Source: Leucoraja erinacea
Taxonomy: Eukaryota
Length of the DNA stretch: 64,000 nt
Reading direction: 5' to 3'
Assembly: GCF_028641065.1 (NCBI RefSeq)
Contig: NC_073406.1
Location: 8,246,001 to 8,310,000, forward strand
Every line of letters starts with the position of its first letter. Position 1 is the stretch's first letter. The notes beneath the pieces were generated by a model that worked only from the letters and a program-made list of their open reading frames with translations, had not been told where the DNA came from and made no database searches. This document shows, in pieces, positions 21,631-47,917 of the stretch. Both the position numbers and the translations under genes were made by a program.

Positions 21631-22327
21631 CCGGAACTTTGCTCGGTATCTTTAATCTCCCGGGCCAGATGTTCGCAACATCAGCCCACAACAACTGAAG
21701 GCAGCTCATGTTTAAGAATGAAGGCCGCTCGCTTGATTTTAACTGCGCCTCAAAGACAATGAAGTGTTTGTACCGGGCCGGCTACAACCTCGCTGCTGCC
21801 TCTTCACAGCCCCTTTCACTCTGTGCCCGCACCCAGTGTGATGTTAATGCGGCTCGTTGGGGCTTCCTCGCCCATTCACAACCCGACCCACCCTTTATGC
21901 CTCTAATCAAACTCGAGTGACTTAAACAAGCTCCGGGAGAGTCCATCGAGCTTGTGTTTGGTCTCCACTTTGTGTCAAAGGCCTGACGCGTGGCAACACG
22001 CTCCCGTTCCCCACTCGCCACTTTCCTCGCGGTATCCAGTGGATCGGTGGCGAGATGCTGCCGCGTTGATTGCGCGTCGCGGGTGGCGACTTGTCCCTCC
22101 CCGTGGCCGCGGGGTTGGGGGCTGTGGGAGCTCAATGGCACGGAGGCGTTGCTGCGATTTTCCTCGCTGCGAGGCGCCGTCCGCGCTGGAGGCTGTTGTC
22201 AGGGAACTGGGTCACATTTAATATGGGCAACGGGGCCCCGCCGATTCGCTGCGGATCAGCAAATTGCTTCTTTTGTTCTGGGGGTTTCTTGCGCGAAAAA
22301 AAGAGCAAGAAGGGAAACTGTTCTTTG
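21631..22327 (+). repeat. Local low-copy module A, copy 1
   Basis: Near-identical to reverse complement of 32689-33384, 42292-42931 and 47408-47917; ORF-track translations of the copies are the same or nearly so. Confidence 0.95.
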
Positions 22328-22910
22328 ACAGCCCAAGAGTCACTTTCACCTTCCAGCGAGTTCAATACAACCGTTTCAAAAAACTATGTGTTGTCGAAAG
22401 GAACTGCTGGTTTGCACCGAAAATTGACACAAAACGCTGGAGTAACTCAGAGGCAGAGGCAGCATCTCTGGAGACCCATCTGTGGGGTAATGGTACAATA
22501 CTAAGTACCATGAGAAGGATCTCGACCTGATTCGTTACTCATTCCTTCTCTCCAGAGATGCTGCCTGTCCCGCGGAGTGACTCCAACATTTTGTGCCGAT
22601 CTTCGTTCCAAACTTTGAGCGTTGGAGCACGCACTTCCTCACGCCACAACCTATACACTCAGAGCCGAGTTCCTCCAGCACAATCTTGTGTTTTACTCAA
22701 GATTCAAGACACCTGAAGGCGATGGAGGGCACGCTGGGCTTCATCAGTCAGGGATGGGGCGTAGAAGAGAGTTGATAGATTCGAGAGTAATTCGGTATTT
22801 AACTGGAAAGTGGAAAATGACAAGAGAGAGAACTGTCTCAACGCGTTATCCTCTGCCTTTGCCGGCGAGAGGAAGGCGACTGGGGTATCATTCAGAGGCT
22901 GGAGTGGGGT

Positions 22911-22970
<60 letters not shown>

Positions 22971-23572
22971 TCTTGTGGGCAGTCGGTCCAACACAAAGCC
23001 GAGATACATCAGTGATCGCCTCTGAGGGGATCAATGAACCAGGGGATTGGCAAAGAAGGGAGTTTCTAACTATTGGGGGAGCGAGGCGAATGCATTTTCA
23101 ACACTGGACAGGAAGAAACTACAGATGCTGCTTTGATTCGAAGATAGACACAAAATGCTGGAGTAACTCAGAGCGCCAGGCTGCATCTGTAAAAAAAGGA
23201 ATGGGTGACTTTCAGATGGAGACCCTTCTTCAGTCTGATGAAGCGTCTCGACCCGAAACGTCATCTATTCCTTTTCTCTGGAGATGCTGCCTGACTCACT
23301 GAGTTACGCCAACATGTTGTGTCTATCTTCATCTCCGGACATGTCGGCGCTCCAGTGCATGATGATGGAAGTCTCTCTCCGGCAGCGAGAGCGCCCGCAG
23401 GAAACTATCGATAAACAGAAGAATGTCTAATTGTGTGGACAGTAAATGAACCCCTTCGGAAATGCCAATTATCCGATCGTGGCGGAGTTGCTTCACAATT
23501 CTGTTTATGTCAGATTTAAAAGACTTCTAAACTGCCCGGGCCAGAAGACGAGTCATGCGGGTCCGGGCCAGG

Positions 23573-24076
23573 GTGATTCGATCAAATGAGGACAACCTAA
23601 TTATTAAAACGTGTCCAATCCAACACCAAAACGCGTTCCCAATGAGGAGCGGAGACAGTTAACTGAGTTGAGAGGGGACTTATGCCGGCCGTTGCCGGAC
23701 GGGAGGTGCTGTGAGATTCCTGAGCAGAAAATTGTGATTGTGTCAGGACATGGAGATGATTAGCACGGCGCTGGCTTTGAGCGCGGAGCGTGAAACGGAT
23801 TTGCCATTTACTACAGAGCGAGAAATGAGCGTTGAATAGCATCCCCACTATGACACTGGCCGCCAGCCCCGACCGCCCTGACACCCGCACACACTCAGCA
23901 CCACCAATTTATCGCTTCATTTTCCGCTGCGGGAGGGTCACCGCCGCCCAAGATGCTGATCCTGACGATGCGTTTCATTTGTCGGCGCAGAAGCGAAACT
24001 GATCAAAGTTACACACAAGTATCTAACTGGAGACGGGCGGCGCAACAACATTCCGATATTGTTTCATGGAATCTTT
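23573..24076 (-). repeat. Local low-copy module B, copy 1
   Basis: Reverse complement matches 29611-29951, 39608-40120 and 45307-45521 (shared RVSGRSGLAASVIVGMLFNA... translation). Confidence 0.95.
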
Positions 24077-24649
24077 GCCTCTAATGATGCACCTCGTTTA
24101 GCATACAGCGTGGAAACAAACCCTTCTGCCAACTTGTCCATATCCCTCTAAACATGTACTTTCCACATACGTGTCTAACTGTTTCTTAAACATTGCAATA
24201 CGCTTCAACTACCTCCTCTGGCATTTCGTTCCATACACCCACCAACCACCCTTTGTGTGAAAAAGTTACCCCTCGGATTCCTATTAAATCTTCCCCACTT
24301 CTCCTAAAAGTATTTGCAAAACTCCATGCACCAAGAATCACCAATTTCCATTTTAGTAATCTTATGGGAATTTGAATCCAATATTTTTTTAAATCGCACT
24401 TCTTTCCGCCTCTAACGGTGGGGACAGAATCTCCCGTTGTCTTTGATCAGTTGGTGTTTCAATTAATAATTGGTTATGACTTGTTTGTTTTGCTGGACGT
24501 TGATTAATGGAGAATAATCCTATCAAATGCCTTAAGGAAGGAACACTTAATGCAAAGAGTTGACCAACTGACCATTGGCAGATCAGCTCCGTGTTTCAAA
24601 TCCAGTGGGGAGGAATAATGATGAAGGAATCTCTCTCTCTCTCTCTGCC

Positions 24650-24726
24650 GCGTTACAATGGGCGCGGGCAGCTGCGGGGAGCGGCGACTCCTTGCATTCA
24701 CATGCAAAGTGGCGATACTTTATAAA
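24650..24726 (+). promoter_or_regulatory. HES3 proximal promoter
   Basis: TATAAA 24721-24726, ~110 bp before ATG; Sox-type ACAATGG 24655-24661; Sox/POU-like CATTCACATGCAAAG 24695-24709. Confidence 0.6.
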
Positions 24727-24837
24727 CCCCTCGCCAACGGCGCTCCCGGCTATTTCACCGCTCACCTGTTCTTGCGGAGCAAGCACACCCAGGAAAAAAA
24801 ACACATAACTATAAGGGGAATCAAAAAAGAGTGTGAA

Positions 24838-24909
24838 ATGAAAAATACCAACAAGCCGGCGGGTCGGTTCTTGCTCCCAGTCGCCACACAAACCTGCGGC
24901 CACAGGAAG
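24838..24909 (+). CDS. HES3: HES3 exon 1
   Basis: MKNTNKPAGRFLLPVATQTCGHRK|gtgggt; phase-0 junction RK|ISKP is typical of Hes genes. Confidence 0.75.
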
Positions 24910-25247
24910 GTGGGTGAGAGATTGCTGGAATCTAGCCGATATATGAAGTGTGTCGGGAGGAACTGCGGATAGGCACAAAATGCTGGAGTAACTCAGCGAG
25001 ACGGGCAGATAAACCGCAAATGCTGGTTTGTGCCAAAGAATGACACAATGAGCTGGAGTAACTCCAACTGAGTTACTTCATTCGGCCTTATTTTGGAGGT
25101 AGATAAAAATGCTGGAGAAACTCAGCGGGCGAGGCAGCATCTGTGGAGCGAAGGAAATAGGCGACGTTTCGGGTCGAGTCTGTCTTCGATTTGTGACGTG
25201 TTGATTTGTGGAAATTGCAAAGAAAGTAACGTGTTTGTTGTTTGCAG

Positions 25248-25343
25248 ATTTCAAAGCCGCTGATGGAGAAAAAAAGAAGGGCTCGGATCAACGAGTGCCT
25301 GGAACAGCTGAAGTCGTTGCTGGAAGACCACTACTCTAATAAC
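25248..25343 (+). CDS. HES3: HES3 exon 2 (basic region/helix 1)
   Basis: ISKPLMEKKRRARINECLEQLKSLLEDHYSNN; 96 nt; matches HES3/her3 signature. Confidence 0.95.
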
Positions 25344-25389
25344 GTGAGGACCCAAACCCTCCCGCCGCCGCGCCAACTCTGCCCAAGTG

Positions 25390-25760
25390 TTTAGTTTGGT
25401 TTAGTTTAGAGATACAGCGCGGAAACAGGCCCTTCGGCCCATCGATTCCGCACAGCCCAGCGACCCCCATCTGACACACACTAGGGGCCAGTTAGATTTA
25501 CACCAAGGCAATTAACCTCCAAGACTTTGGAGTGTGGGAGGATACCGAAAATATTGGAGAAAACCCATGCGGGTCACAGGGAGAACGTGCGAACTCCGCA
25601 CAGACAGCACCCGTAGTCAGAAGATAGACACAACACGCTGGAGTAACTCAGCGGGACAGGCAGATTCTCTGGAAAGAAGGGATGTGTCCAGACCCTTACT
25701 CAGGATCGAACCCGGATCTCTGGCACTGTAAGGCAGCAGTTCTACCGCTGCGCCGCCAGT
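25390..25760 (-). mobile_element. V-SINE-like copy in HES3 intron 2 with nested Penelope-derived fragment
   Basis: Reverse-strand tRNA head (caggatcgaacccggatctctggcactgtaaggcagc) and (gttta)n tail; insertion at ~25619-25698. Confidence 0.75.
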
Positions 25761-25850
25761 GTTTTGTGTTGAGTTTTTTTTTTCTCGAGTGCTTTCCTTC
25801 TCAGTACCCCTGCCCCTCTCATTTATTCCCTTCACGTTTTTACGCTACAG

Positions 25851-25932
25851 ATTAGGAAACGCAAACTGGAAAAGGCCGACATCCTGGAATTAACCGTGAA
25901 ACATCTGAGGGATTTGCAGAGTTCTCGACAGG
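25851..25932 (+). CDS. HES3: HES3 exon 3 (loop/helix 2)
   Basis: IRKRKLEKADILELTVKHLRDLQSSRQ(G); IRKRKLEKADILEL is diagnostic of HES3. Confidence 0.95.
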
Positions 25933-26664
25933 GTGAGTGTTATCTCAGCACAGACATTGGCGCGGGGTGGTGATATGTGTTGGCGGTGTATACGGCCAGT
26001 GGAGGGTCGGAGGAGAGGACTGGGTGAATGGTTCTTTGAATGGGATTAAAGAAAATTCACGGCAGGGCGAAAGGGGGCTGCCCGGATTAATCGCTGATGG
26101 AGAAAAAGAGAGGGGGTCGGATCAGCGAGTGCCTGGATTAACCGGGGAAGCGGAGCGGGGAGGGAATGGAATTGTCAGCAGGGGGCTGGGGTGGCGGAGT
26201 AATGGGGAGAGGGTTGGGCAGTTGGGCCGAATGGTCCCAACAGAATAACCTGGATTTGAAGAGAGGATTTCAGGAGGAGTGTTAACGCATCTGGGATGTT
26301 CAACTTTCCCGTGAGCGGACGTGGGTAGAGCCGAGGGGGGAGAGAGTGTGTGTGTACCTCGGACACCCCTAGCGAAGTTGGTGTAGGAAGGTACTGTAGA
26401 TGCTGGTTTAAACCGAAGATGGACACACAAAGCTGGGGTAGCTCAGCGGGACGGGCAGCATCTCTGGAGAAGTCTTCGAACGGTTTCGATCCGAAACGTC
26501 ACCTATTCCTTTTCTCCAGAGATAGAAACATGCTTGTCCGACCCGATGAGTTAGTTACTCGCACCTTGTGTCTATCTTCTGAAGTTGGGACGTGTTATGC
26601 GCAGGGTATAAGTGGAGGTGTTGGCGCGGTGGCCCTGACTGTGTGTGTGTGTGTGTGTGTTTAG

Positions 26665-27122
26665 GGGCGGTGCGGATGTCGAGAGACGGAGCGGCGCAGT
26701 ACCAGGCGGGATTCAGGAGCTGCCTGAACGCAGTCAGCCAGTACCTGCTGCGGAGCAAGGGCACGGAGGAGCACCTGCGGCTGGGCGTACTCAACCACCT
26801 GGTCACCGCTTTCCCCGTCTTCTCCGGCTCCGGCTCCGGCTTCGGCGCGGTGGACGGCGGCAGCCGAAACGAAGGCCGGCTTCTAGTCAATCCGGCGGCG
26901 CAGCCCCAAGGCGAGCTGTGTGGGCCCGCGGCCAAAGCCACCGCCGCCTCCGCGCTTCGACACAGCATCCAGCAGCAAGTAGCTGACATCTCGGCGACTG
27001 AAAATTCCAGCCCAGAGACCCCCGCACAAGAACAGGACGCAGCGCCCGTCGCTGCCCAAACTAAACCCCCCGCCAACCGTGTAGCCTCCCCTGACTTGGA
27101 ACAGCTGTGGCGGCCTTGGTAG
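26665..27122 (+). CDS. HES3: HES3 exon 4 (Orange domain, WRPW)
   Basis: YQAGFRSCLNAVSQYL Orange helix; ends LWRPW* (Groucho/TLE motif); in phase with exon 3. Confidence 0.95.
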
Positions 27123-27248
27123 CTCTCTCACCCCCCTGCGCTGTGCATAGCGTGTGCTGAACTAGTGAGGGGATGAACTGCAGATGCTGAAGATAGATCC
27201 AGAATGCTGGAGTAGCTCGGCGGGACAGGCAGCATCTCTGGATAGAAG

Positions 27249-27439
27249 TGTTTAAGAAGGAACTGCAGATGCTGGAAAATCGAAGGTACACAAAAATGCT
27301 GGAGAAACTCAGCGGGTGCAGCAGTATCTATGGAGCGAAGGAAATAGGCAACGTTTCGTCCCGAAACGTTGCCTATTTCCTTCGCTCCATAGATGCTGCT
27401 GCACCCGCTGAGTTTCTCCAGCATTTTTTGTGTACCTTC
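27249..27439. mobile_element. Penelope-derived inverted-repeat element in HES3 3'UTR
   Basis: Arms 27282-27357 and 27361-27439 are near-perfect reverse complements; flanked by tctctggatagaag duplication. Confidence 0.75.
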
Positions 27440-27550
27440 TCTGGATAGAAGGAACGGGTGAAGTTTCGGGTCGAGACCCTTCTTTGTATATAAGTGTATG
27501 TAACTGCTTTGTAAGAAAATTGTTGGAATATTAATTCTATATCTAGAAGG

Positions 27551-27556
27551 AATAAA
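27551..27556 (+). terminator. Putative HES3 polyadenylation signal
   Basis: First AATAAA after the stop, in AT-rich context followed by a U-rich tract. Confidence 0.6.
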
Positions 27557-27616
27557 GGATTTTTCTTTAGATTCCGTCTCAAGCCTTTTGTAACCTTCCT
27601 ATCTTAAGATCCTTAT

Positions 27617-27785
27617 AGAAACATGGAAAATAGGTGCAGGAGTCGGCCATTCGGCCCTTCGAGCCTGCACCGCCATTCAATATGATCATGGCTGATCATC
27701 CAACTCAGTATCCCGTACCTGCCTTCTCTCCATACCCCCTGATCCCCTTAGCCACAAGGGCCACATCTAACTCCCTCTTAAATAT
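27617..27785 (-). mobile_element. CR1 LINE 3' end
   Basis: Reverse complement of the 3' UTR of the + strand copy at 39410-39590. Confidence 0.8.
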
Positions 27786-28217
27786 ATATTTCCAAAAGCT
27801 TTTTGGAAACCAAGAAGATGTTGGAATCTTGAGCAAAACACGAAGTTCCGGAGGAACTCAGCGGGTCAGGCAGCATCTCTGGAGGGAATGGGCAGACTGA
27901 AGAAGGGTCGCGACCCGAAACGACCTCAGTCCATTCCCTCTACATTTGACGCCTGAACCGCTGAGTTCCCCCAGCAACGTGTGTGATTTAATATTCTCCA
28001 CGATCAGAGGACGCACTCGCAGTGTAAGTAACCCACCGACCTCAATTAATAATCTGGCTACAGGTTAAAATCAGATAGTTATCAGATTAGTGCTATTAGG
28101 TCCCTGTGTTTAATGCCGCACGTGCTGCTAAAATTCACCTGGCATCCCTGCATCTTTTAGCGAGAGAAAGCTAAAGACAATTTCGAAACAGTGCATTTTT
28201 TTACACGAAAAACGAAG

Positions 28218-28540
28218 ATCATAGAAACATAGAAAATAGAAAATAGGTGGACGAAGAGGCCATTCCGGCCCTTCGAGCCAGCACCGCCATTCATTGTGAT
28301 CATGGCTGATCGGCCCCAATCAATAACCCGTGCCTGCCTTCTCCCCATATCCCATGACTCCACTAGCTCCTAGAGCTCTATCTAACTCTCGCTTAAATCC
28401 ATCCAGTGATTTGGCCTCCACTGCCCTCTGTGGCAGGGAATTCCATAAATTCACAACTCTCTGGATGAAAACGTTTTTTTCTCACCTCAGTCTTCAATGA
28501 CCTCCCCTTTATTCTAAGACCGTGGCCCCTGGTTCTGGAC
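28218..28540 (-). mobile_element. CR1 LINE 3' end
   Basis: (catagaaa)n tail; SRTRGHGLRIKGRSLKTEVRK on minus strand. Confidence 0.85.
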
Positions 28541-28893
28541 CAGGGCCCCACGCACACCGCTCTTCCAAAGTTGCCCAGTATTTCAAGGGCCTCCCGGGAG
28601 CAGCGTGAACCACAACACACAGCGAACCGGGGACGAGACATTGGGACGGGGTCCGAATCCTTGTTGAATTTAGCCGGTGTTCCCAGCAGGAAGAGACACA
28701 TGGATACGTTTCGGGAGAGAACCGCGGGATTGAAGGTAGGTTACAGAAAGCTGCATCGCCTTTGGTGAGTCTGAAAAATAAATTATTATTTTTCACGCTT
28801 TCGAATTCCAGCGTCACATTGGCTCAGTGGCCACAATAGAAAACGCCCCTAGTCCCAGATAACCACGGTAGCTGATGTCAAACACTGAGTGTT

Positions 28894-28931
<38 letters not shown>

Positions 28932-29610
28932 GATAACGTGACAATGGTTGTAGATGAGAAGCTGAGCTGACACAGAGCAACATGTCTGTATATGGAAGAT
29001 AAACACAAATAACTGGAGTACACAGTGGGACAGGCAGCATCTCTGGAAATAAGGAATGGATGACGTTTCGGGTCGAGACCCTTCTTCACAATTCATGTTT
29101 GTATATGACTTTGTAATCGATATTCTCTGGGGCCACTGAGTTTCACCGGATGGTTGTGTATTTTATAGGGCGGGTCTCTGTCTGCATGAAGTATCCTCCA
29201 CATAAAGGGCAATGATTGGGGGGATTCTAGCGTCAGTGGACTCACATTATGTTACACTTAATGTTCGGGGTCAGGTGCGAACAATAAAACGGACAAAGCA
29301 CCAATAGCCTTTGTAATGCATTGATCGTGGACACCCCTGTTGGGCAATTGTGTCATTTCATAAACTGTCTGAAGGGGAATAATTGGTGAGTCCGGTTAAT
29401 CATTGACACGATAATAGTCATTAATCGCCAATCCCTGCTTCCTCTCCCCTTCACCGCAGTCATCACTAGATCAAAGGGATCTCACTCAATACAACAACAA
29501 CAGCACAAATCTCACGATGGTCGTATTATTCCGGTTTTACTTGGAGTATTAATACAGGAAGGACGTGGAGGATTTGGAAAGGCCACAGTGGAGGTTCACC
29601 AGAATATTGG

Positions 29611-29951
29611 CGGAATGTTGCTTTCTCCAAAGCGCCGCCCGTCTCTAGTCAGATACTTGTGTGTAACTTTGATCAGTTTCGCTTCTGCGCCGACAAATGA
29701 AACGCATCTTGGGCGGCGGTGACCCTCCCGCAGCGGAAAATGAAGCGATAAATTGGTGGTGCTGAGTGTGTGCGGGTCTCAGGGCGGTCGGGGCTGGCGG
29801 CCAGTGTCATAGTGGGGATGCTATTCAACGCTCATTTCTCGCTCTGTAGTAAATGGCAAATCCGTTTCACGCTCCGCGCTCAAAGCCAGCGCCGTGCTAA
29901 TCATCTCCATGTCCTGACACAATCACAATTTTCTGCTCAGGAATCTCACAG
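29611..29951 (+). repeat. Module B, copy 2
   Basis: Matches copies 1 and 3; has a short deletion after aaacgcatc. Confidence 0.95.
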
Positions 29952-30997
29952 TGCCCCCGCGCCACCCGGCAGCAGCTCTCGCTGTTTGAAAACATTTAGC
30001 ACTGCTCCTCGAAGCTATACCGTTGGCGCTGGGTTGTGCGCTTATGTACCCCACCTGCACCCCCCTCCCCCCCTCGTCTGGCGAAATGCCTGAACTCCGG
30101 GTATCGCAGGTGGTATCGCAAAGTTCCACTGCATTTAATGAAGACGTGAGGCCATTGCTATTAACAAAGGCGAGGACGGAGAACTGCAGATGCTGGTTTA
30201 CAATATGGACACAAAAAGCTCTGCTTACTCAGCAAATTCAGTAAAATGTTGGAGCAACTCAGCGGGTCGGGCAGCATATCTACAGATCTCTTTTCTCCAC
30301 AGATGCTGCCTGACCCGCTGAATTACAGCAGCACGTTGTGGCTATCTTCGAGAATGGAGATGGTTTGTGATACCAATCAATAAGCAAGGTCACATTCACA
30401 TTATGGTGGTAAACCTGTGGAATTCGTTGCCACAGGAGGCTGTGGGGGCCAAGTCAATGGATATTTATATATATGCAGACTCTTGATTAGTACAGGTGTC
30501 GGTGGTTATGGGTGGAAGGCAGCGAAATGGGGTGAAGGAGGAAGAGATACATCGCCCATGATTGAATGGCGGAGTGGACCTGATGGGCCGAATTGCCTAA
30601 TTCTGATCCTATCACGTGTGAACTTTCTAAGGGGTGATCTCCCCTAGAATGGCAGAGCCGCCGCCAGGGCTTGTTTTTATCGGGGTAGCAGCAGACGAGA
30701 CGAAATGCGGTGGAAAGCTTCACTGTGCACGATAGCTGACTTCTGTCAAAAGACACTTGTTTATATCTACACATGTTAATAGAGAAATAATTAGCATGTC
30801 TATAGCCCCCTTCACAACGCCTGGACGTCCTTTACAACCAGTCAAGTACTCTTGAAGTGCAGTCATTGCTGTGATTTAGTGACGGGCCGCAGCCCAGAGA
30901 GCACCGCACGCTGCAGTTCAGTGCAACTGGCCAGTGGTCACCTCTCGTCGGGGGCTCCATCTCCCGGGGATGGTGCACTACACCTGGGCCGTCGCTG

Positions 30998-31585
30998 CCC
31001 CCCCCTCCCCCCCGTCGTCGCCTCTCTCGCAGACCCTATCTCCCCCCCCCTCTCCCCACCCCCCTCTTCCCCACTCCCCCTCTCCCCCCGCTTCCCCCTC
31101 CCCCCCCCCCTCTCCCCTCTTCCCCCCTCTCCCCCCCTCTCCCCCCCTTCCCCCTCTCTCCCCCTCCCCCTCCCCCTCCCTCTCTCCCTCCCTCCCTCCC
31201 TCTCCCTCCCTCCCCCCTCTCACCCCCTCCCCNNNNNNNNNNNNNNNNNNNNNNNNNNNNNNNNNNNNNNNNNNNNNNNNNNNNNNNNNNNNNNNNNNNN
31301 NNNNNNNNNNNNNNNNNNNNNNNNNNNNNNNNNNNNNNNNNNNNNNNNNNNNNNNNNNNNNNNNNNNNNNNNNNNNNNNNNNNNNNNNNNNNNNNNNNNN
31401 NNNNNNNNNNNNNNNNNNNNNNNNNNNNNNNNNNNNNNNNNNNNNNNNNNNNNNNNNNNNNNNNNNNNNNNNNNNNNNNNNNNNNCCCTCTCCCCTCCCT
31501 CTACCCTCTCCCCCTCCCCTCTCCCCCCCTCCTCTCCCCCATCTCCCCCACTCCCCCACTCCCCATCCCCCCATCCCCTCCTCTC
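30998..31585. repeat. CT-rich low-complexity tract with assembly gap (N 31233-31485)
   Basis: Poly-pyrimidine run and N block. Confidence 0.95.
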
Positions 31586-32292: not shown

Positions 32293-32688
32293 TTTGGCAT
32301 TCACTGTATCCAGGCGTTTCACTATTGGATAAGTTTCAATGAGGTCCCTCGCATTCTTCCAAACGTTGTTCTATGCTTCCTCCATTAGTACAGGGGGGAT
32401 TCCTTTAGTAAGCAACGTCCCTCCATTTAATCAATGCAATATGGGCAATATTGTTCAAAAATAATCAACTGTAGATTCGGTGAAATGACCTTGCAGGGAA
32501 TTAGGCGTTATAACAATATTCTAAGGTGATGAATATTCATTATGCCTCCAACCAACTCCCGATTAATGCGTGGACACTATCAGTAACCCAGACAGTAACG
32601 TCAGATTTCTCTATATTCCACCCCCACACCCACCCCTACCGGTTGTGATTTAGCTGAGACCTGAGTCACTTTCGCCTTCTACCCAATT

Positions 32689-33384
32689 CAAAAGAACAGT
32701 TTCCCTTCTTGCTCTTTTTCCCGCAAGAAACCCCCAGAACAAAAGGAACAATTTGCTGATCCGCAGCGAATCGGCGGGGCCCCGTTGCCTATATTATATG
32801 TGACCCAGTTCCCTGACAACAGCCTCCAGCGCGGACGGCGCCTCGCAGCGAGGAAAATCGCAGCAACGCCTCCGTGCCATTGAGCTCCCACAGCCCCCAA
32901 CCCCGCGGCCACGGGGAGGGACAAGTCGCCACCCGGGACGCGCAATCAACGCGGCAGCATCTCGCCACCGATCCACTGGATACCGCGAGGAAAGTGGCGA
33001 GTGGGGAACGGGAGCGTGTTGCCACGCGTCAGGCCTTTGACACAAAGTGGAGACCAAACACAAGCTCGATGGACTCTCCCGGAGCTTGTTTAAGTCACTC
33101 GAGTTTGATTAGAGGCATAAAGGGTGGGTCGGGTTGTGAATGGGCGAGGAAGCCCCAACGAGCCGCATTAACATCACACTGGGTGCGGGCACAGAGTGAA
33201 AGGGGCTGTGAAGAGGCAGCAGCGAGGTTGTAGCCGGCCCGGTACAAACACTTCATTGTCTTTGAGGCGCAGTTAAAATCAAGCGAGCGGCCTTCATTCT
33301 TAAACATGAGCTGCCTTCAGTTGTTGTGGGCTGATGTTGCGAACATCTGGCCCGGGAGATTAAAGATACCGAGCAAAGTTCCGG
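32689..33384 (-). repeat. Module A, copy 2
   Basis: Inverted near-identical copy of 21631-22327. Confidence 0.95.
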
Positions 33385-34406: not shown

Positions 34407-37400
34407 GAAGGGGGGGGGGGTGAATAGATAGCGTCCTTCTGGGAAACGGGGGGAGGTCAGGTGAAAAGTTGCTAAGGCAAGGATGGTGAAATACCAACTC
34501 CGGGGTTACATAGGATATTGTACATATCCAGTGATTGGAAAGAAAGTCATGTGTATTGAAGGCATTGAAATACATCACGGCGTCCCAAAGCCGTGTTGCT
34601 CTCTCAGAAAAAAATAGACATTATACTCAGGTAATCAATCTACTTTTAATATTGATTTTAAAATATATATCTTGCCATGGGCTCTGATTTAAACCCGTAT
34701 TGGCGGTTTCTATCCCACGTGCAGACGGCAACAGTTCTTGGTACTGACAGTTAGAATTTGTTTAGGGTAAATTCTAGATCTTCCTAGGAAGTTTGGGCCA
34801 GGAAGAGGCACTAGACTGCGACACAGTGTGACTCTGCTCCTTAAACGAGGTTGTTGGAGCCGGTAATAGTTCATCGAGTGCAGTTTGGGGATTTTCCAAC
34901 CAAAAACAAAGTCGGATAAATGATTTTATTAATTGATGTCTGATTTCTAAATTGAAACAATACTTCTTTGAAAGCCACCCCAGATACGATATAGATAGTT
35001 TCGGGAGTGGATAATTTGGCTGCTTTCCTCCGATACTGTTATTGGTCAGATAAAGTTCGGTTATATTTTATTCTATCCTGTCCTTGACTCAACCTAACCC
35101 CAAGTCTCCCTCCATCCTGACCTCTCCAGTTCATTTTAAACAGGGTCCGGTTAGTCATTTGGCAGACAAATGAGACCCGAGCTCTGATCAGAAGGATCTC
35201 CTTGTAACTGACAGGGTCTCACAGTGAAACTGACAAGCCCACGCTCGCTTGACGAGACCTGAACTCCAATTGAGAATCAAAGGCCATTTATCTCTCGCCT
35301 AATAACACCTTCTAGACTGAATCGCCCCTTTCAGAAGTGAATTAGTTGCCATTAACCAAAGGTAATTAGATTCTCTCTTGACCAGAGTGAATGTGAATTC
35401 AAATGAGGATTTGAACTCATGATCTCCAGATGAATAGTCCTTTAGTGTTACCACTATCGAACCTCGCGTCTGGGGATTCAATAACCCAACAGCTTTATGG
35501 TCACTTTTACTGACACCTGCTCTTTATTTGTGGCGCTTTAAACAATGTGGGCTCATATTCCCAGACTGCCTCGGAGTCTTCTGAATCGCGGGCCCAGTAA
35601 CTATCGCTGCATGTTACCGAGCCACTTCACATAACCTGTTCGGTGGCGATGAACAATGGTAAATTATTACAGATACTGGAATTTCGAAAGTCGTGGAAAC
35701 TCCCCCTCTCTATCTGCTCGTGGTTCCAGCAAATTATCTATTTAATGTTTGATATCAATTTCTCGATCAGGAAAGTTATTGAGTTATAATGGATTCTGCC
35801 GTCCCCCACTCGCCCACGCCGACCAGGGTTTATAGCTGGGAAAGGCACAATGTACTGGAGTAACTCAGTAAGCAAGTGGGCAAATGGGATTACCCAGTTA
35901 TAAAACCCGAGGAGATACGAGGAACTGGCCTTGCTCGTTCATGCAAAAAGAAAAATACACAAGGTGCTGCACTAACTCGGTGGATCAGGCAGCATCTCTC
36001 TGGAACATAGATAGGCGATGTTTCGGGTCGTTACATATCCCGATGTCCCGGTCTCTCCAGCCTCACGCCATCCAGTCCCGGTAACATCTTGATGAATCCT
36101 ATCTGCATCCTTTCCAGATTAATGATTTCCTCCCTATAGCTGGGCGACCAGAACTGCACCCAGTGCTCCAAGTGTGGTCTCTTCAACACCTTGTACAGCC
36201 ACAGCATGAAATCCCAACTTCTGTACTCAATAGAGAGACAAGAAAATGCTGGAGTAACTCAGCGGGTCATGTGGCATCTCCGGAGAAAAGGAGTGGGTGA
36301 GGTTTCCGGTTGAGGCCTTTCTTTAGATCTTTTACTGATGAAGGCAAGCAGGCCAGTCGCATCATTCAACACATTGTTTACCTATGTCACCACTTTCAGG
36401 GGACCATGTACCTCTCTGCTCTGTAACATTCTCCGGGCTCTGCCATGTACTGTGCAAGTCCAACCCTGGTTTAACTTACTAAAATTTAATATCTTACACT
36501 CAACAAATTGGTCCAGGTCCTTCTGTAAATTACAGCGTATTCCTCGCACCCCACTGTACCACCAATTTAGGGACCAAATGCCAATTTACTAAATGCGTTA
36601 ACTGCACTGTCGTTAACAATATCTCCTAAACATGTTTTACAATTATGTAGATGCTGGAATTCGGAAATAAAAAAAAGTAAAGATTGTAAATCCTCAGCAT
36701 TTGTGGGAAGAGAAAAAGAGTAAACGCTACAGGGTAATTCTGAGCTGGTTGGGAGAAATAAAGCGACATAAATTGCAAGCGCGAGGGGACAGTTTACACT
36801 GGTTTACACCGAAGGATAGACATCTCTGGATAGAAGGAATGGGTGAGGTTTCGGGTCGAGCTCCTTCTTCAGACGGAGAGTCAGGGGAGAGGGAGACACC
36901 GAGACATGGAAGTGTAAGGTGTGAAATCGACACATCAAGGTGGACAGAGATCAAGGAAAATGTAGAAAAGATCACTTTTAGCTGGGGAAAGTTGACAACG
37001 AAGCAGATAAAGATAACATTTAATTAGGAGTAAGGTGGGGGGGAGAGAGGAAAAGCAGGGATATGTGTAAATGTTAGTGTGGGATATGCCAGAAAGAAGG
37101 TCGCTTTAGCAAATAAAAAAAACATCACATTTGATAAACGTGGTGAGGTTGTACATTTTGAGAGCGGGAAAGAGATTGCGGAGTATAGAATTCGGCGCCG
37201 GATTATAGTGTTTTTTCATTTAAACGCAGCAAACGGGAGTCGCGGATTCGCATCGAACGCGATTCCTGAGCATCATTCGGTGGGTTATTATGGGAGTAGC
37301 GCTTTCATAAAACGCGAAACAAGCAGCATTTACGAGAGATGCCTCGCTTTTGTTAAATGATAGGATGGATATTAACGAGTTTCTTGTGATTGACTTCGTT

Positions 37401-37921: not shown

Positions 37922-38299
37922 TTCCAACCTCTGATGCCTGCATTCGATTCTGAACGAGGCTGAAATTCGTTACTCCCAGAAAGTTGTGTTTCTAAACCTT
38001 ATTTTATTACTCGTTGGCCTGGCGTGTAAAAAATGTGATCCTTTTGATTTGACCGGGAGACCACATAGGTTTGAGGGAACGCTGCCCGCTCGCAGACTGA
38101 GAGGATGGTGGGTGCCAATGGTGTGTAGTAATAGGGCAGGAAGGTTTCAACTTCTCTACTTCTGGGATATTGTTGACGGTGGGGGTAAAGAGGAGGGGGG
38201 GGGGGGGGGGTTGAGTTTGCGACCATGGTGCTTTATGAAAGGGTCCAGGGGAGGTTTCCGTGAATGATCCCAGGCTCATTGCGTTAACGTAGGGTGAGA

Positions 38300-38990: not shown

Positions 38991-39119
38991 CCCTAGACCA
39001 TTTGGTGTTTCGGCTTCTTGATCAAGCTTCGGGTTAGGGGCGGATTGAGTCTGCATGAGTTTGCAACCATAAAGTTAGTTTTCCCGGACACGTAGGAGAT
39101 TACATTGTTGACTCGGCTG

Positions 39120-39590: not shown

Positions 39591-39607
39591 CTCCACCCTG
39601 GATGTGG

Positions 39608-40120
39608 AAAGATTCCATGAAACAATATCGGAATGTTGCTTTCTCCAAAGCGCCGCCCGTCTCCAGTTAGATACTTGTGTGTAACTTTGATCAGTTTCGC
39701 TTCTGCGCCGACAAATGAAACGCATCGTCAAGATCCGCATCTTGGGCGGCGGTGACCCTCCCGCAGCGGAAAATGAAGCGATAAATTGGTGGTGCTGAGT
39801 GTGTGCGGGTGTCAGGGCGGTCGGGGCTGGCGGCCAGTGTCATAGTGGGGATGCTATTCAACGCTCATTTCTCGCTCTGTAGTAAATGGCAAATCCGTTT
39901 CACGCTCCGCGCTCAAAGCCAGCGCCGTGCTAATCATCTCCATGTCCTGACACAATCACAATTTTCTGCTCAGGAATCTCACAGCACCTCCCGCCCGGCA
40001 ACAGCCGGCATAAGTTCCCGCACAAGTCTCCGCTCCTCATTGGGAAAGCATTTTGGTGTTGGATTGAGTTAGGTTAGACACGTTTTAATAATTAGGTTGG
40101 CCTAACTTGATTGAATCGCC
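39608..40120 (+). repeat. Module B, copy 3
   Basis: Longest match to copy 1, including more diverged flanks. Confidence 0.95.
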
Positions 40121-42291
40121 TTCGCTTTCTTAGTATTTTAAATCTGTATTCCCTTTTGAAGCTTTCAAAAAGCGAGAATCGCTCAATGAAAGGTCAAAAA
40201 TCTCACTGCACCCGCACTCTCTCTCCCTCCTCCTCGCCACCCTCCAGTTTCCCACCGCGAACTGGTCGCCCGTGTTAGCAGAACAAACGTCCTCCAACAT
40301 TCTCCGCTCCTCATCTGGAAAAGCCTGGGCCGGGGAACGCTTTGAAGTTACTTTCTACATGTTTGTGGTGACTGATGCCTGCAATTGTCATTCGGGTGTG
40401 TGTTATTAACCACGCTTTGCCGTGATTGATGATCCCCCCAGCTCTGTAACATTAGCCCTACAATGGACTGGCTCAGCAACCTTGGTCACGGGGCAACCTC
40501 GCCACAATTCACCTATCCAGAGCGTTGAAGAGAATTGCCTTCGCAGGTAATTCAATCAACAATAATACACGAAGTCAAGCTTGGTATTGTCCAATTCACC
40601 ACTACCCTACTGAGGACAATGGACTTTTGTCTGAGGAATTGATGCAAACCAACATGCTACAATGCTGAGAACCAAATCCTGCACCGTGTATCTTCCCCTC
40701 TGCTCTATTTATGGTATTGGAGTATGAACTGATTGCATTGGTGTATGCTATATATCTGAGCTGTTTTGATAGCTTGCTAAACAAAGCCTTTCATTACCTC
40801 GGCGCACACGACAAAGATAAATGAAAATCTCCTAAACCATAGGGGAAAGAAAGCGATGTTACTAACGTGTGAACTTTCCAATATTCTGTAAAGTTTTCCA
40901 ATGCTAATGTTATGATTATAGAACTAACTTCGAGAAGTAAGTCTGGCGGGTGAGGGGTAGTTTTTCATTCATCGGCCCTCGGTGAGACCGTGGGTAGAGT
41001 TTCAAGCGTAAAGGCCGGTGTTACATCGCTTAGATTGTTCACAGACTCTGAGAGTTTCTTCTGACGGAGAGGGAGGGGTTGGGGGATGGAGGAGGGTGTG
41101 TTGGTCGGGATGCAGTGAATGGAGAGACGCCAGCTGTCTCTGGAAGACGCAACCGTTTAGACACTCCGCGTTACGGTCATTAGCGATTTCTACCTTTCCC
41201 ACACCACTAAATGGCAGCGCTCCCAGCCAGGCCCCGGGTTTGCTGATGAACCAACGTCTCCATTTATCATCACCCCGCACTCAGTACATTGAGCAGCGGA
41301 TGAATAGATGCACTCACTCGCCCCACTGTGAGCTCCATCCAATCGTGCTAATTGTGCACAAGGGAATCCTCTCGGGTTTTCTGTCTAAAGTTCTCTTTGG
41401 TATTTCACACTGAGTCTGATACAACGGAATGTCATGAGATTTACCAGGTGTTTTCAAGATTATATATATATATATATATTTAGATTTGGGGGGGATCATT
41501 TTCCCGATGGAATAACTACTCTCTGGAAGCCTCTCTGTGTTTGGGATGAAACTACGGCAATCTCAGTGAGCGGTGGACTATGTTAAGGAGGCCAATAACT
41601 TTCTGATAACCCCCCCAAAAAAAGACAATGCAACTGCAGCACAGAATAGAAAATAAATATTAGAATATTAGATATTAGAATAGTAGGAATACAACCCAGC
41701 GGTATGAACATTGATTTATGTCAAGTAATCCTTGCATTCCCTCTCTCTCCGTCTCTTCTCCACTCTTGTCGTCCTGCTAGTTGCACTGTTTGCATCCCTT
41801 CGTTATCCCACCTCTTCCACAACCAACAACGGGCCATTGTGGGCTCTACCTTTCCCGGGGCATTGCCGCCGGCTCTGATTTGTTCTGTACCCTTTCACAC
41901 CTCTGTGTTCTCTCTCCCCTGGCTCTCAACCTGAAGAAGGGCGTCAAGCCTAAATATCACCGAATCCTTCCCTCCGTGTCTATCGTCGGTGTAAACCAGC
42001 ATCTGCAGTTCCTTCCGATACAGAACATTCATATTATCTCGTTAGAAGTTACAGTGGAATTGTATTTAGGGGAATATTCTGCACTTTATATTGAATGAAG
42101 TGTACGCCTAAATATCCCGCATTGACTTCTCCCACCTGACCTTGCAGCATCCATCCTACCATTTAATTTCGGTCAGTCAGTGGTGAATGTGTATGCTCAC
42201 TTCACTCAACACTTCTGCCGATCCAGTCTCCTTTGTGGCTTTTCAACACTTTCTCTTACCACGGACTTTTGCTCCTTTTATTGTCATTATC

Positions 42292-42931
42292 AAAAGGAAC
42301 AATTTGCTGATCCGGAGCGAATCGGCGGGGCCCCGTTGCCCATATTAAATGTGACCCAGTTCCCTGACAACAGCCTCCAGCGCGGACGGCGCCTCGCAGC
42401 GAGGAAAATCGCAGCAACGCCTCCGTGCCATTGAGCTCCCACAGCCCCCAACCCCGCGGCCACGGGGAGGGACAAGTCGCCACCCGGGACGCGCAATCAA
42501 CGCGGCTGCATCTCGCCACCGATCCACTGGATACCGCGAGGAAAGTGGCGAGTGGGGAACGGGAGCGTGTTGCCACGCGTCAGGCCTTTGACACAAAGTG
42601 GAGACCAAACACAAGCTCGATGGACTCTCCCGGAGCTTGTTTAAGTCACTCGAGTTTGATAAGAGGCATAAAGGGTGGGTCGGGTTGTGAATGGGCGAGG
42701 AAGCCCCAACGAGCCGCATTAACATCACACTGGGTGCGGGCACAGAGTGAAAGGGGCTGTGAAGAGGCAGCAGCGAGGTTGTAGCCGGCCCGGTACAAAC
42801 ACTTCATTGTCTTTGAGGCGCAGTTAAAATCAAGCGAGCGGCCTTCATTCTTAAACATGAGCTGCCTTCAGTTGTTGTGGGCTGATGTTGCGAACATCTG
42901 GCCCGGGAGATTAAAGATACCGAGCAAAGTT
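42292..42931 (-). repeat. Module A, copy 3
   Basis: Same orientation as copy 2 and near-identical to it. Confidence 0.95.
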
Positions 42932-44701
42932 GGGATCAAACTTTAATAGAAAATAAATCGTTGGAGAATTGAAAATGTGTTAGATTCAAAGATTCACATC
43001 TATGCTGAAACTTGGTGCATTTTGCCAGTTTTTCACACAGGAGTGAGTTGGCGACCGCAGCCCTTGTTCGATGTTTATAGAATGACAGGGTGATAGAGGT
43101 TCCTGCTGAGCAAAGTGGCCATTCGGCTCATAATGTGCCGTCAAAGTCAAGAATGTTTAATTGTCTCATGCACCGACAGCGGAATTATGAAATTGTTCAT
43201 TGCTGCAGAGAGAAAAGACTTTGCCTTCCATCACAGTGAGGAGGAGGTTCACTTTGATGGATGTTTGCGTAAATTGAATTGTTTGTGTGTCTTGTAGGAA
43301 TTGTCTTTATATGGCTGTGGAAACGGAGTTTCGTTTGAGTCTCACTGAGGTTCAAATGACATGTAATAAAATATTGTATATTGTATTGTTAACGGGGCCC
43401 TTAACATAATAACACACATTATAAATACATAATGATCAATAATACAACAAGCGAATAACAGTAATTCTAGACAATCATAATAGCACTACACCGAGGTCCA
43501 TAGTGCAACCAAAGACAGAGTCCGTGGAAGGTCAGAGTTGCTGAGGTTAGTGTTGTGCAGTGTTCTAGAGCTTGTTGTTGGCGAGAAGAAGCTGCTCTGG
43601 AACCTGGAGGTGTTCGTTCTCAGCCAGATCCATCCGCTTCGCATGTCTTGGTCTGTAAGTTAGACGTTGGGACCGTCAAGTGCTGTTCGGGACACTGCGG
43701 CCTTTAACTGTTGCTAGGGACACTGCCTCCCATCCCATGCGCTACAGTGACCGGCCATGTGTTCTCCTTGAGAATCGAAGTGTTGGCTGTGACTCGGTCT
43801 CCAGGTACACTGCACATTGGTATCACTGTTAATTGTTCCCAGTGTTACATCAAAGATATTCGAGTGGTTAAACTGTCTATCAAAACGATGCTTTTGTTTT
43901 TCTCTCTTACCCGTGGTTACGTGGTCTACACTTTTAGTAAATAAAGACCAGGATACCGACTGATGTTTTGTAGTCTTTCTGGATCTGGGGGAGTAGGTGG
44001 AGAAATGCTAATTCTGGTTTGGAGGAAGTCCACAGCAAAGACATAACCTTCACCGTAGAACATGTTTAAGAAGGAACTGCAGATGCTAGGACAATCGAAG
44101 GAAGGCAATAATGCTGGAGAAACTCAGCGGGTGAGGCAGCATCTATGGAGCGAAGGAATGGCACCCATTCCTTCGCTCCATAGTTGCTGCCTCACCCGCA
44201 GAGTCTCTCCACCCCCCCCCCCCCCCCCCCCGAACCTTAGAACCTCATCAGTTAGAGTGCCCTCCTGACCTCATATCAACATGAAGAAGGGTCTCGACCC
44301 GAAACGTCACCCATTCATTCTGTCCAATGATGCTGCCTTTCCCGCTGAGTTAACCCGGCTTTTTGTGCCTATCTCCCATCTACCTCATTGGCGACCTCTA
44401 AACCTTTTTTTGGTCGGATTTTATTGCAATTCAGTGTTTTATTTTTGCGCTATATGTGGTCCCCTTTATCCTTCATTTCCGTCTGTGCGCTGTTGAATGG
44501 CTTATACATTTCATTCATGGACAGTGTTTTCTTTGACAACAGCATGCAAACAACCTTTCACTGTACCTCGATACACGTGACAATAATAAAATAAAATAAA
44601 CTAATCGTGAAACTCGGCCACTCGGGATAAGACATAAACACCACGCACAAAGCGCAGATGAAATTTAGTGATCTCCTCTATGTTGAGTCTATGCTCTACG
44701 C

Positions 44702-45061
44702 CAGTGGTTCCCAACCTGGGGCCCCTTGGGGTCATGGCAAATTTCAGGGAGGCCACAGACACTTTGGGGGATTTAGGGGGGCACAGGTTCAATGAAGGGG
44801 GCCACAGAGCTACCACCCTGTTGCCTCCTAAATTTCAGTTCTAATGAATGTAAATCTATGTAGTTGAAATATTGTTAATGTTTGTGGAATAGAATAAAAG
44901 AGAATATATGTGCAATTAATAGACACTGATATTTTTATAGAAGGTATATATATTGAAGTACCTTTTTTCCGCTAATAATGTCAGCGGGGGGGGGGGGGGG
45001 GGGCACAGAAAAATTAAACGATCCCAAGGGGGCCATGAGCTAAAAAGGTTGGGAACCACTG
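44702..45061. mobile_element. Non-autonomous hAT (Charlie-like) DNA transposon
   Basis: TIR cagtggttcccaacct / aggttgggaaccactg; 8-bp TSD ctctacgc / ctctatgc. Confidence 0.88.
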
Positions 45062-45306
45062 CTCTATGCTATATGGTTGGGATGGGGAGGGGGGAGGGGC
45101 GTCTGGTCAACAGGCGAAAGGAAATGATGAATTTGTAAGGCTTTAAAGAGTATACAACTGGGGGTAGTAAAGGGGGTTTGCTTGAGATCCGCCACGGTCC
45201 GCATGAATAGCCGGGGGAGTGAGATATCCTCTCATTCCATGCGAATGCCAAGTGCGACCACGTCCTACTTGTCGATTCATTCCCATCATAACAAAACAAC
45301 ACAACA

Positions 45307-45521
45307 AAAATGAAGCGAGGAATTGGTGGTGCTGAGTGTGTGCGGGTGTCAGGGCGGTCGGGGCTGGCGGCCAGTGTCATAGTGGGGATGCTATTCAACG
45401 CTTATTTCTCGCTCTGTAGTAAATGGCAAATCCATTTCATGCTCCACCCTCAAAGCCAGCGCCGTGCTAATCATCTCCATGTCCTGACACAATCACAATT
45501 TTCTGCTCGGAAATCTCACAG
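45307..45521 (+). repeat. Module B, copy 4 (core only, more diverged)
   Basis: aaaatgaagcga...aatctcacag core with several substitutions. Confidence 0.92.
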
Positions 45522-46252
45522 CGGTCTCCAGCTCTCTCCGGCCTTCCCACTTTACACCATCAAGCAGCTCCCTCCATTACACCGTGAAAAAGCGATGACT
45601 CTTCTTAGAGGCAATGCAACAGTTTGTCAGACTGCCGCTAACTTTGTCAGCGCCGTAGGTGGCTGCTATTTGTATACATTGTGTATGCAAGCAGAGAATC
45701 TCACTGTGCCTAGTCACACGTGACAATAAAGTATTCCTATCCATATTCTATTCGAACTTCGGTCTCCATAAGCCTCTGTTTTTTGCCAACCTGTCTTGGG
45801 TTCTCTGACCTTGCTAAGTGGGGACTATCTACGTACGAAGAGCGTGCATTGCTCCACAGAGCTACTGAAACTATGCTCGTGTACATTTCCCAATCAGTTA
45901 GCTTGGAGACTTCTCATTCTGAAAAGTGTGTCTTTGTACAAAGAGTCTGAAGAATGATTCGGACCCGAAACACGGCAGCCACCCTTCTTCTCCAGAGATG
46001 CTGCCTGACCCGCTGAGTTACTCCAGCACTTTGTGTCTATTTTTGTACAAATCAGTTGGCCAAGGGGGAAATAATCATCAGTTCAGTGCACTGGTTGATT
46101 GAGATTTTTAGGAAATAATGTGTATATAATATATATATTTTCGTATGTGGGTTTGCATAGGAAAGAACTGCAGATGCTCGTTTAAATTGAAGGTAGGCAC
46201 AAAATGCTGGAGTGACTCAGCGGGCCAGGCAGCATCTATGAAGATTAGGAAT

Positions 46253-46458
46253 NNNNNNNNNNNNNNNNNNNNNNNNNNNNNNNNNNNNNNNNNNNNNNNN
46301 NNNNNNNNNNNNNNNNNNNNNNNNNNNNNNNNNNNNNNNNNNNNNNNNNNNNNNNNNNNNNNNNNNNNNNNNNNNNNNNNNNNNNNNNNNNNNNNNNNNN
46401 NNNNNNNNNNNNNNNNNNNNNNNNNNNNNNNNNNNNNNNNNNNNNNNNNNNNNNNNNN
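46253..46458. other. Assembly gap within a Penelope-derived inverted repeat
   Basis: N run flanked by oppositely oriented ctcagcggg/cccgctgag arms. Confidence 0.95.
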
Positions 46459-46544
46459 CGGCCTGAAATGTTGCCCATTTCCTTCGCTCCATAGATGCTG
46501 CTGCACCCGCTGAGTTTCTCCAGCACTTTTGTCTACCATATACA

Positions 46545-46594
46545 TGTGTATATATATATATAGACGCTATTGAAGATATAATATATATAATTGA

Positions 46595-46651
<57 letters not shown>

Positions 46652-46690
46652 TTGTGTGTATATATATATATAGTATATATATATATATTA
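46545..46690. repeat. (TA)n/(TG)n microsatellite
   Basis: Direct observation. Confidence 0.95.
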
Positions 46691-47407
46691 TTCAATAGCC
46701 TCTTCAATATTTTCAAACTAGGACATGGTTTTATTTGTGAAGATAATGATACACCTTCTTCTTCCCCTGCCACCTTTATATGGCCTTGTTTAAATTAGCA
46801 AGTTTGTTTGTTGACAGACCAGCGGGTATGTGATGGCACGTTTCCTTGTCACTCTTCCCGTCGCTTCACATTGGGAGTTTTTTCATGCCGGTGCATTTAG
46901 AATGTGGAGAGATTACAGATCCATATATCCCGAGGTTGCAGCCAGTGGAAAAACAACGCAACTGTGTCTTTATATGGCGCCTTTAACACAACAGGGGCCC
47001 TCGAGGAAACGTCTAACAAAATGCAATGGACAACGAGTCACATTGGGAGATGGCCCAAAGTTTGGTCAAAGAAAGAGGCTTGAAGATGCGTCTTAAAGAT
47101 GAAAAAAGGAAAGCAGGGAAGACAGTAATGGAAGGACCTCTACAGCTGGGAGCGTTGAGTGCGGAGGCACCGGTCACCAGCCGTGATTGAATAAGGAAAT
47201 AAAAATATATAACAACAGAGGGTCCACCAAACCGGTGTCACACGCCTCCTGCCGAATAATCCGAAAACATCCGATAACTTTTATTTCGGATGAAGTGACA
47301 TTGTTTTATCAGACACACTCACTCACTCAGACACAGACACACACACACCTATAGTATAACCACAGGGAATGTTTTCTACGCCGCGTAAAAATCTTTTTTT
47401 TTTACTG

Positions 47408-47917
47408 AAAGGAGCAATTTGCTGATCCGGAGCGAATCGGCGGGGGCCCCGTTGCCCATATTAAATGTGACCCAGTTCCCTGACAACAGCCTCCAGCGCG
47501 GACGGCGCCTCGCAGCGAGGAAAATCGCAGCAACGCCTCCGTGCCATTGAGCTCCCACAGCCCCCAACCCCGCGGCCACGGGGAGGGACAAGTCGCCACC
47601 CGGGACGCGCAATCAACGCGGCTGCATCGCGCCACCGATCCACTGGATACCGCGAGGAAAGTGGCGAGTGGGGAACGGGAGCGTGTTGCCACGCGTCAGA
47701 CCTTTGGCCCAAAGTGGAGACCAAACACACGCTCGATGGACTCTCTCTGTCGGAGCTTGTTTAAGTCACTCGAGTTTGATTAGAGGCATAAAGGGTGGGT
47801 CGGGGTGTGAATGGGCGAGGAAGCCCCAACGAGCCGCATTAACATCACACTGGATGCGGGCAAAGAGTGAAAGGGGCTGTGAAGAGGCAGCAGCGAGGTT
47901 GTAGCCGGCCCGGTACA
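47408..47917 (-). repeat. Module A, copy 4 (truncated, more diverged)
   Basis: Matches copies 2 and 3 up to gccggcccggtaca; small indels and substitutions. Confidence 0.93.

Follow-up and report, generated by a model that had tools for sequence, protein, structure and literature searches.

Four ordered pairs of near-identical non-coding modules, termed A and B, surround a HES3-type gene in a 64-kb window of the genome of the skate Leucoraja erinacea (NC_073406.1). This window is the whole stretch of DNA that was analyzed, and all copy counts refer to it. The array is real and far from chance. The cores of the modules are considerably more alike than their edges, spacers and flanks, and they are probably old duplicates, for which homogenization by short ectopic gene conversion is well supported. 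A wider proposal, namely that a two-part upstream hes3 regulatory block was multiplied and kept under concerted evolution, would explain the array best, and we regard the case for it as evenly balanced.

Four pairs of modules around the HES3-type gene

Self-BLAST and profile searches bore out an original prediction, made from the letters of the DNA, of four A+B pairs with a fixed order and orientation. Exactly four A and four B modules were found; they are clustered in 27 kb, and the remaining 37 kb of the window holds no copy. After repeat masking, no further shared modules were detected in the window. An ordered pairing of A and B within 3.5 kb was obtained in 59 of 400,000 random placements. 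In the A-to-B reading direction, the plus strand carries pair 1, upstream of the HES3-type gene, and the minus strand carries pairs 2-4, downstream of it; the whole array is flanked by a VAMP gene and a PANK gene.

Module A1 (21631-22327, plus strand; GC content 0.57, CpG observed/expected ratio (o/e) 0.94) is the most complete copy and extends from -3207 to -2511 relative to the HES ATG. Its partner B1 (23572-24076, plus strand) extends from -1266 to -762, so that the pair occupies the predicted interval 0.8-3.2 kb upstream of the gene. B1 contains the four-way B core at 23709-23923 as well as a 5' shoulder at 23572-23693, which is common to B3 only and is 10% diverged with three indels. Pairs 2-4 are all on the minus strand. 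In pair 2, B2 (29611-29976) carries a 15-bp deletion and has lost the 5' shoulder entirely or nearly so, and A2 (32689-33384) is the inverted partner of A1, with an identical run of 444 bp. In pair 3, the core of B3 (39608-40120) equals that of B1 at 215 of 215 sites, and A3 (42291-42931) resembles A1 and A2 in its 5' half and A4 in its 3' half and 3' end. In pair 4, B4 (45307-45522) is the shortest and most diverged B module, and A4 (47408-47917) lacks the 5' 138 bp. The spacers of pairs 1-4 measure 1244, 2712, 2170 and 1885 bp from edge to edge, in agreement with the predicted distances of 1.2-2.7 kb. All predicted pairs were thus found, but the prediction had missed two assembly gaps, one of 253 N in spacer 2 (31233-31485), inside a C-rich low-complexity tract, and one of 206 N in spacer 4 (46253-46458), between fragments resembling short interspersed nuclear elements (SINEs).

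The profile searches also gave a faint match to the 5' shoulder of B at 40285-40363, some 165 bp upstream of B3, with an E value of 0.066, and another match with an E value of 9.9.

Similarity of cores, edges, spacers and flanks

In pairwise self-BLAST alignments, A1 matched A2 over 696 bp (98.9%), A3 over 641 bp (99.1%) and A4 over 510 bp (96.5%), and B1 matched B3 over 524 bp (91.4%), B2 over 335 bp (94.6%) and B4 over 216 bp (95.8%). Within the cores, identity was 99-100% among copies 1-3 and 95-98% for copy 4. Of the 506 sites in the four-way A core, 5-6 differed among copies 1-3 and 12-15 in copy 4; for the 215 sites of the four-way B core, the respective numbers were 0-1 and 9-10. Divergence among A1-A3 was 0.8-0.9% across 639 bp, and identical runs among the copies reached 211-444 bp. 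The near identity of the cores had been predicted from a 119-codon frame, which is indeed the same in A1 and A2 and has one changed residue in A3.

In contrast, the shared edges of the modules, or shoulders, are 6-20% diverged. Substitutions between B1 and B3 were found at 1 of 229 core sites versus 11 of 110 edge sites (Fisher test, p 2.6e-5), and between A1 and A2 at 1 of 587 versus 6 of 108 sites (p 7.6e-5), with the borders between core and edge segments picked after inspection of the data. Just beyond the common 3' end of A1 and A2, a micro-inversion of 41 bp (22337-22377) differs from its counterpart at 32663-32703 at 8 of 41 sites (80% identity). Homology that reaches past the cores is thus clearly older than the homogenized cores themselves.

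The spacers and flanks show no homology. When the repeat-masked spacers were compared, 2 of 12 shuffle tests were nominally significant (p<0.05), both owing to gappy, chance-like alignments, and none of the 6 upstream and 10 downstream flank tests was significant. Anchored tests across the module borders gave 3 nominal results out of 12 (p 0.01-0.02, all on the 5' side of B), none of which persisted after correction. The comparison of cores and flanks that had been suggested as a check therefore yielded a clear gradient, from cores diverged by 0-1% via the shoulders to flanks without homology, and the claim that the spacers lack mutual homology held. Ten repeat intervals were present in the spacers; their best in-window identity was 74-87% in nine cases (one of them a G run) and 93% in one, values that serve as a rough guide to age, with younger subfamilies possibly lying outside the window. 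Nearly all shoulders are retained in unit 1, and units 2-4 each lack different ones. Because of this distribution, unit 1 looks like the parent.

Long G-rich tracts, in the A-to-B orientation, occur in spacer 1 (22906-22969) and spacer 2 (30990-31585) and may reflect either a low-complexity tract inherited from a common ancestor or poor consensus. SINE-like fragments at 27249-27439, 49521-49700 and 50689-50971 often form head-to-head inverted pairs or short tandem copies, and by eye the interval 49521-49700 resembles a small GC-rich palindromic element.

Probable gene conversion between module copies

To judge from their divergence, the cores are apparently of much more recent origin than the duplication itself, because the edges, the spacers and the transposon fragments in the spacers are much more diverged. 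They are thus more alike than the adjoining homologous edges and the age of the duplication allow, as is characteristic of concerted evolution. In addition, A3 appears to be a mosaic of A1/A2-like and A4-like parts: along the informative sites, it matches A1 and A2 ten times in a row and then A4 at 4 of the next 5, and it has its 3' end in common with A4. Both splits of the copies, 12 against 34 and 14 against 23, are present. The original suggestion of an old multiplication followed by gene conversion is consequently supported by the contrast between cores and shoulders, by unalignable spacers with older-looking transposon fragments and by the apparent mosaic structure of A3. The differences in A4 are not clearly clustered (p 0.20), with p 0.04 for the largest clean gap.

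Ectopic recombination between the copies would be feasible, because the identical runs of 211-444 bp are within the range of minimal efficient processing segments, which are given as 134-232 bp for mitotic and 300-500 bp for meiotic recombination in the accessible part of PMC2583991. Had direct copies crossed over, the spacers would have been duplicated as well, so that conversion tracts without crossover are the more probable form.

Gene content and context of the array

The array lies in a CpG-retaining domain (21001-52000) that also covers HES3. The median CpG o/e was 0.69 in the 31 windows of this 31-kb domain, compared with 0.31 in 24 windows of the neighboring genes (p 4e-10). Such CpG retention is expected at germline-unmethylated developmental loci. 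The full-length modules have GC contents of 0.51-0.61 and CpG o/e values of 0.91-1.05, with 0.70 in B4, and all eight lie within the thresholds for CpG islands (a length of 200 bp or more, GC content over 50% and CpG o/e over 0.6). The modules are non-coding and close to a gene for a developmental transcription factor. Position, CpG retention and the exclusion of transposons make it plausible, from this context, that they are a hes3 enhancer or regulatory block.

The HES3-type gene (24838-27122, plus strand) has four coding exons (24838-24909, 25248-25343, 25851-25932 and 26665-27122) and encodes a protein of 235 amino acids (aa) with a bHLH domain, an Orange domain and a WRPW motif. The HLH and Orange domains were recognized with Pfam, which together with WRPW assigns the protein at the family level, and we take its bHLH domain to resemble that of HES3. 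A synaptobrevin gene (Pfam Synaptobrevin) is located to the left of the array, and a pantothenate kinase gene, of which four exons were tested and all four gave the Fumble domain, starts at 51628; these are presumably VAMP3 and PANK4. The gene order is therefore VAMP - HES3 - PANK (about 6000-64000 of the window).

Upstream of the HES3-type gene, at 24695-24726 on the plus strand, a Sox-Oct composite site is followed after 11 bp by TATAAA. This her3-type control element is single-copy in the window and lies outside the A and B modules. Its layout is that of the zebrafish her3 SP site. Taken by itself, the pattern carries little weight, as 0.47 occurrences are expected by chance in the window, but position and spacing agree. 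In the zebrafish her3 promoter, a Sox-Oct site that precedes the TATA box by 11 bp is a well-documented control element, according to the accessible part of PMC2858445. A gene called her3 also adjoins pank4 in the elephant shark, but the authors suspect that this her3 may be a hes5 homolog (PMC8320183). Because of the Sox-Oct/TATA layout and the pank4 neighborhood as in the elephant shark, the resident gene is likely to be the HES3/her3 ortholog. The hes gene in the pank4 interval differs between lineages, because hes5 is the neighbor of pank4 in chicken, gecko, coelacanth, gar and Xenopus; for the spotted gar, two hes3 genes were reported (PMC8320183). The resident protein as a tblastn query, a scan for WRPW, and nhmmer searches for the promoter and every exon revealed no second hes gene, no second hes promoter and no hes5 in the window, although the two N gaps could hide copies. 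The names hes3.1 and hes3.3 for Xenopus are bare entries in an accession list and were not used as evidence for tandem hes3 genes.

A partial, diverged copy of HES exon 2 was observed in intron 3 (26089-26143; nhmmer E 4.6e-7; 57 of 72 columns identical). A G-rich minisatellite with 23/46-bp units (5484-6007) lies directly upstream of the first VAMP exon, and a broken transposase remnant, presumably Tc1-like to judge from its frames, is present at about 62850-63900, where the single piece scanned had no Pfam match. Repeat-free single-copy stretches at 29100-29520, 35150-35800 and 47918-48420 look like regulatory elements by eye. For six single-copy intergenic stretches, no second copy was found in the window.

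A protein-coding nature of the modules was rejected, as none of 12 module frames matched Pfam. Searches for relatives of one A frame gave nothing convincing among 105 candidate proteins of near length, and those for one B frame nothing among 2 such candidates. Another A frame, compared with 1.84 billion representatives, gave one weak match (E 2e-4, 34% over 39 residues), which fell on six stretches of a 1692-aa protein and was taken as compositional. A4 carries insertions of 4 bp and 1 bp.

Discussion

The array can be accounted for by an old duplication of an A-spacer-B unit, with A at about -3 kb and B at about -1 kb, into four units, one of which became inverted relative to the other three. 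The four-unit structure is plain, as is the erosion of everything outside the cores, and the duplication is presumably old; hes3 copies were perhaps duplicated along with the modules and later lost. Spacers and flanks would then have been replaced through transposon insertion and deletion, and the cores were probably spared because a regulatory function within an unmethylated developmental domain kept them under selection. Ongoing non-crossover ectopic conversion among copies 1-3, with copy 4 drifting off, is well supported as the next step, and conversion would continue because the cores stayed alike and within 27 kb. Finally, the array might act on HES3 through several enhancer or silencer copies and thereby determine how strongly or in which domains the gene is expressed, and for this last step we see about equal chances either way. 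As a corollary, A1/A2 and B1/B2 are inverted repeats around HES3, so that crossing over between them would reverse the orientation of the gene; if this happened in A, an A+B pair would stay upstream of HES3 and the outer neighborhoods would be exchanged.

Several observations weigh against this proposal or limit the evidence in its favor. MaxChi supported the A3 mosaic nominally, as 2 of the 12 triplets gave p values of 0.0067 and 0.028, but p was 0.08 after Bonferroni correction across these 12. Two of the four pairs, 2 and 4, span assembly gaps. None of the 45 repeat intervals, which make up 28% of the remaining DNA, overlaps a module, whereas about 10 overlaps would be expected; however, the p value of this exclusion is inflated, as the modules were defined by similarity and the copies are non-independent. 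The Hes N-box, class C, TCF, Sox and TAATC motifs named in the original prediction are present, but they occur at chance level (p 0.07-0.76 versus 500 shuffles), and the only nominal excesses among 28 patterns per region were TAAT in the A core (p 0.046) and TGACA in the B core (p 0.032). Neither an octamer nor an RBPJ site was found in A1 or B1. Furthermore, no hes promoter or exon remnant was detected beside units 2-4 by tblastn, the WRPW scan, nhmmer and the flank tests, and because of this we can only infer that these units were left behind by lost gene copies. The positional likeness to zebrafish is likewise ambiguous. There, 4 kb upstream of her3 drive brain expression, and two elements conserved with gar are located at -3155 to -3032 and -695 to -597 (PMC12199784). 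The positions of A1 and B1 are close to those of these elements, NCR-1 and NCR-2 (about -3.1 kb and -0.65 kb), but the comparison is one of position and the match may be due to chance. The zebrafish elements are shorter (123 and 98 bp), rich in octamer and Sox sites and not described as repeated, whereas A and B lack the octamer.

Other explanations differ in what they make of the extra copies. It is doubtful, in our view, that unit 1 alone or none of the units is functional and that copies 2-4 are leftovers, which conversion keeps alike wherever insertions left the homology unbroken. This would explain the pattern of identity equally well and fits the completeness of unit 1, the various truncations of the other copies, the motifs at chance level and the decay of copy 4, where 3 of 9 B4-specific changes are CpG transitions. 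However, the same two cores persist in all four units and are free of transposons, although other duplicated sequence, including any gene or promoter, is gone. Selection alone, without conversion, is possible as the cause of the likeness of the cores. A recent segmental duplication with very fast spacer turnover and without conversion would be the simplest source of 99% identity, and the cores are too close for independent dating. Nevertheless, we give it the least credence of all, considering that just two nominal matches resulted from 28 spacer and flank tests, that the spacer repeats look much older than 1%, and that the shoulders are graded and one copy appears mosaic. Very improbable, too, is a young or domesticated transposon family hopping locally, for example a Helitron-like one with variable captured interiors. 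High identity, high CpG content and two parts in fixed order would suit it; yet the predicted absence of terminal inverted repeats (TIRs), target site duplications (TSDs) and tails was confirmed, as no shared TIR, TSD, long terminal repeat end or 3' tail was present at the module ends. A tRNA head or transposon protein was not seen either, the ragged ends are common to subsets of copies next to diverged shoulders, and the copies are confined to 27 kb.

An exon reading and an assembly error have to be weighed as well. As exons of a multi-copy or repeat-containing long non-coding RNA (lncRNA), the modules would be read from B to A with A as the terminal exon, divergently from the HES3 promoter in unit 1 and on the plus strand in units 2-4. 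On that strand an ATTAAA is found about 16-25 nt inside the end common to A1-A3, the A core folds better than its shuffles (z -2.39; 1 of 100 shuffles as good), and acceptor-like sites exist in B1-B3. Against this, A4 lacks the terminal ATTAAA, the acceptors seen by eye in A are not common to all copies, and simple consensus patterns revealed no splice donor near the 3' end of a module, whichever orientation was considered, and no splice sites common to the module borders. The other strand of A folds well, too (z -1.79), B does not on the one strand folded (z -0.32), and searches with Rfam, with ARAGORN for tRNAs and against plasmid DNA gave no match in the modules. The lncRNA exons that the original prediction had offered as a second possibility thus receive little support, and we judge them improbable. 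Decidedly improbable is also an assembly or polishing artefact, with fewer real copies, diverged copies made alike by the consensus, or mis-joins at gaps. The N gaps in spacers 2 and 4 would be in line with such an error, and two long G runs (59 and 35 bases) point to a locally poor consensus. A false haplotype duplication, however, would have doubled the spacers as well, and each copy has private substitutions and indels and unique flanks; moreover, pairs 1 and 3 are free of gaps, and the order of A and B is visible from these two alone.

Several known systems resemble the homogenized regulatory array that we propose. In duplicated conserved non-coding elements (dCNEs), the copies have drifted apart much further than the skate modules. 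Like these, dCNEs (McEwen et al.) are paralogous non-coding elements near developmental transcription factor genes, as stated in the accessible part of PMC2781166. They stay beside paralogous genes, whereas the skate array comprises four copies around one gene, 95-100% identical across 215-640 bp. Homogenized inverted repeats that flank functional genes, with frequent inversion of the spacer, are described in the accessible parts of PMC8327919 for FLNA-EMD and of PMC9731477 for the Saccharomyces flip/flop region. The arms of these repeats are mostly gene-bearing and measure kilobases, with 4 kb in yeast and 8-140 kb in the X palindromes of primates; in contrast, the skate arms are non-coding modules of 0.3-0.7 kb around HES3, for which inversion is only hypothetical.

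The human alpha-globin X, Y and Z boxes are near-identical blocks that are maintained by conversion, with non-homologous, SINE-bearing segments between them, and the skate array shares this arrangement. The alpha-globin unit holds a duplicated gene, whereas in the skate no duplicated gene or promoter is left, there are four units, and one of them is inverted. The repeated Irx-Sowah elements of amphioxus reportedly go back to tandem duplication inside the Irx cluster. These conserved non-coding elements are listed with copy letters a-d in the accessible part of PMC5010895. That recombination between repeats a few kilobases apart works with short identity is likewise documented in the part of PMC2583991 cited above. 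A description of the array was not found in a literature search that covered few subscription journals, nor in the accessible parts of PMC2865518, PMC6010424, PMC3342872, PMC3826495 and PMC3082574. What sets the array apart is that its four copies are short, gene-less and 95-100% identical and surround one gene only, and it can at most be classed as a candidate dCNE or enhancer array.

Concerted evolution is a familiar feature of gene families, including the flanking DNA, whereas enhancers that have been duplicated usually diverge or vanish. Should the extra copies be non-functional or mis-assembled, the array would be of modest significance. A further-reaching idea, to which we assign a low likelihood, is that a gene-less, self-correcting array of hes3 modules has been kept across elasmobranchs, in which gene conversion would spread a binding-site change to every copy simultaneously, and that its inverted members A1/A2 and B1/B2 let HES3 flip recurrently between VAMP and PANK4, always with an A+B pair upstream and with changed distal elements. 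If the proposed concerted evolution is true, structural polymorphism is predicted, namely inversion of HES3 and loss of units. The array would then also offer a clean test of selection versus conversion behind extreme non-coding similarity, based on trees of paralogs versus orthologs in sharks and rays, and a gene-less array of four copies with 99% identity would mean that conversion can act on cis-regulatory DNA alone.

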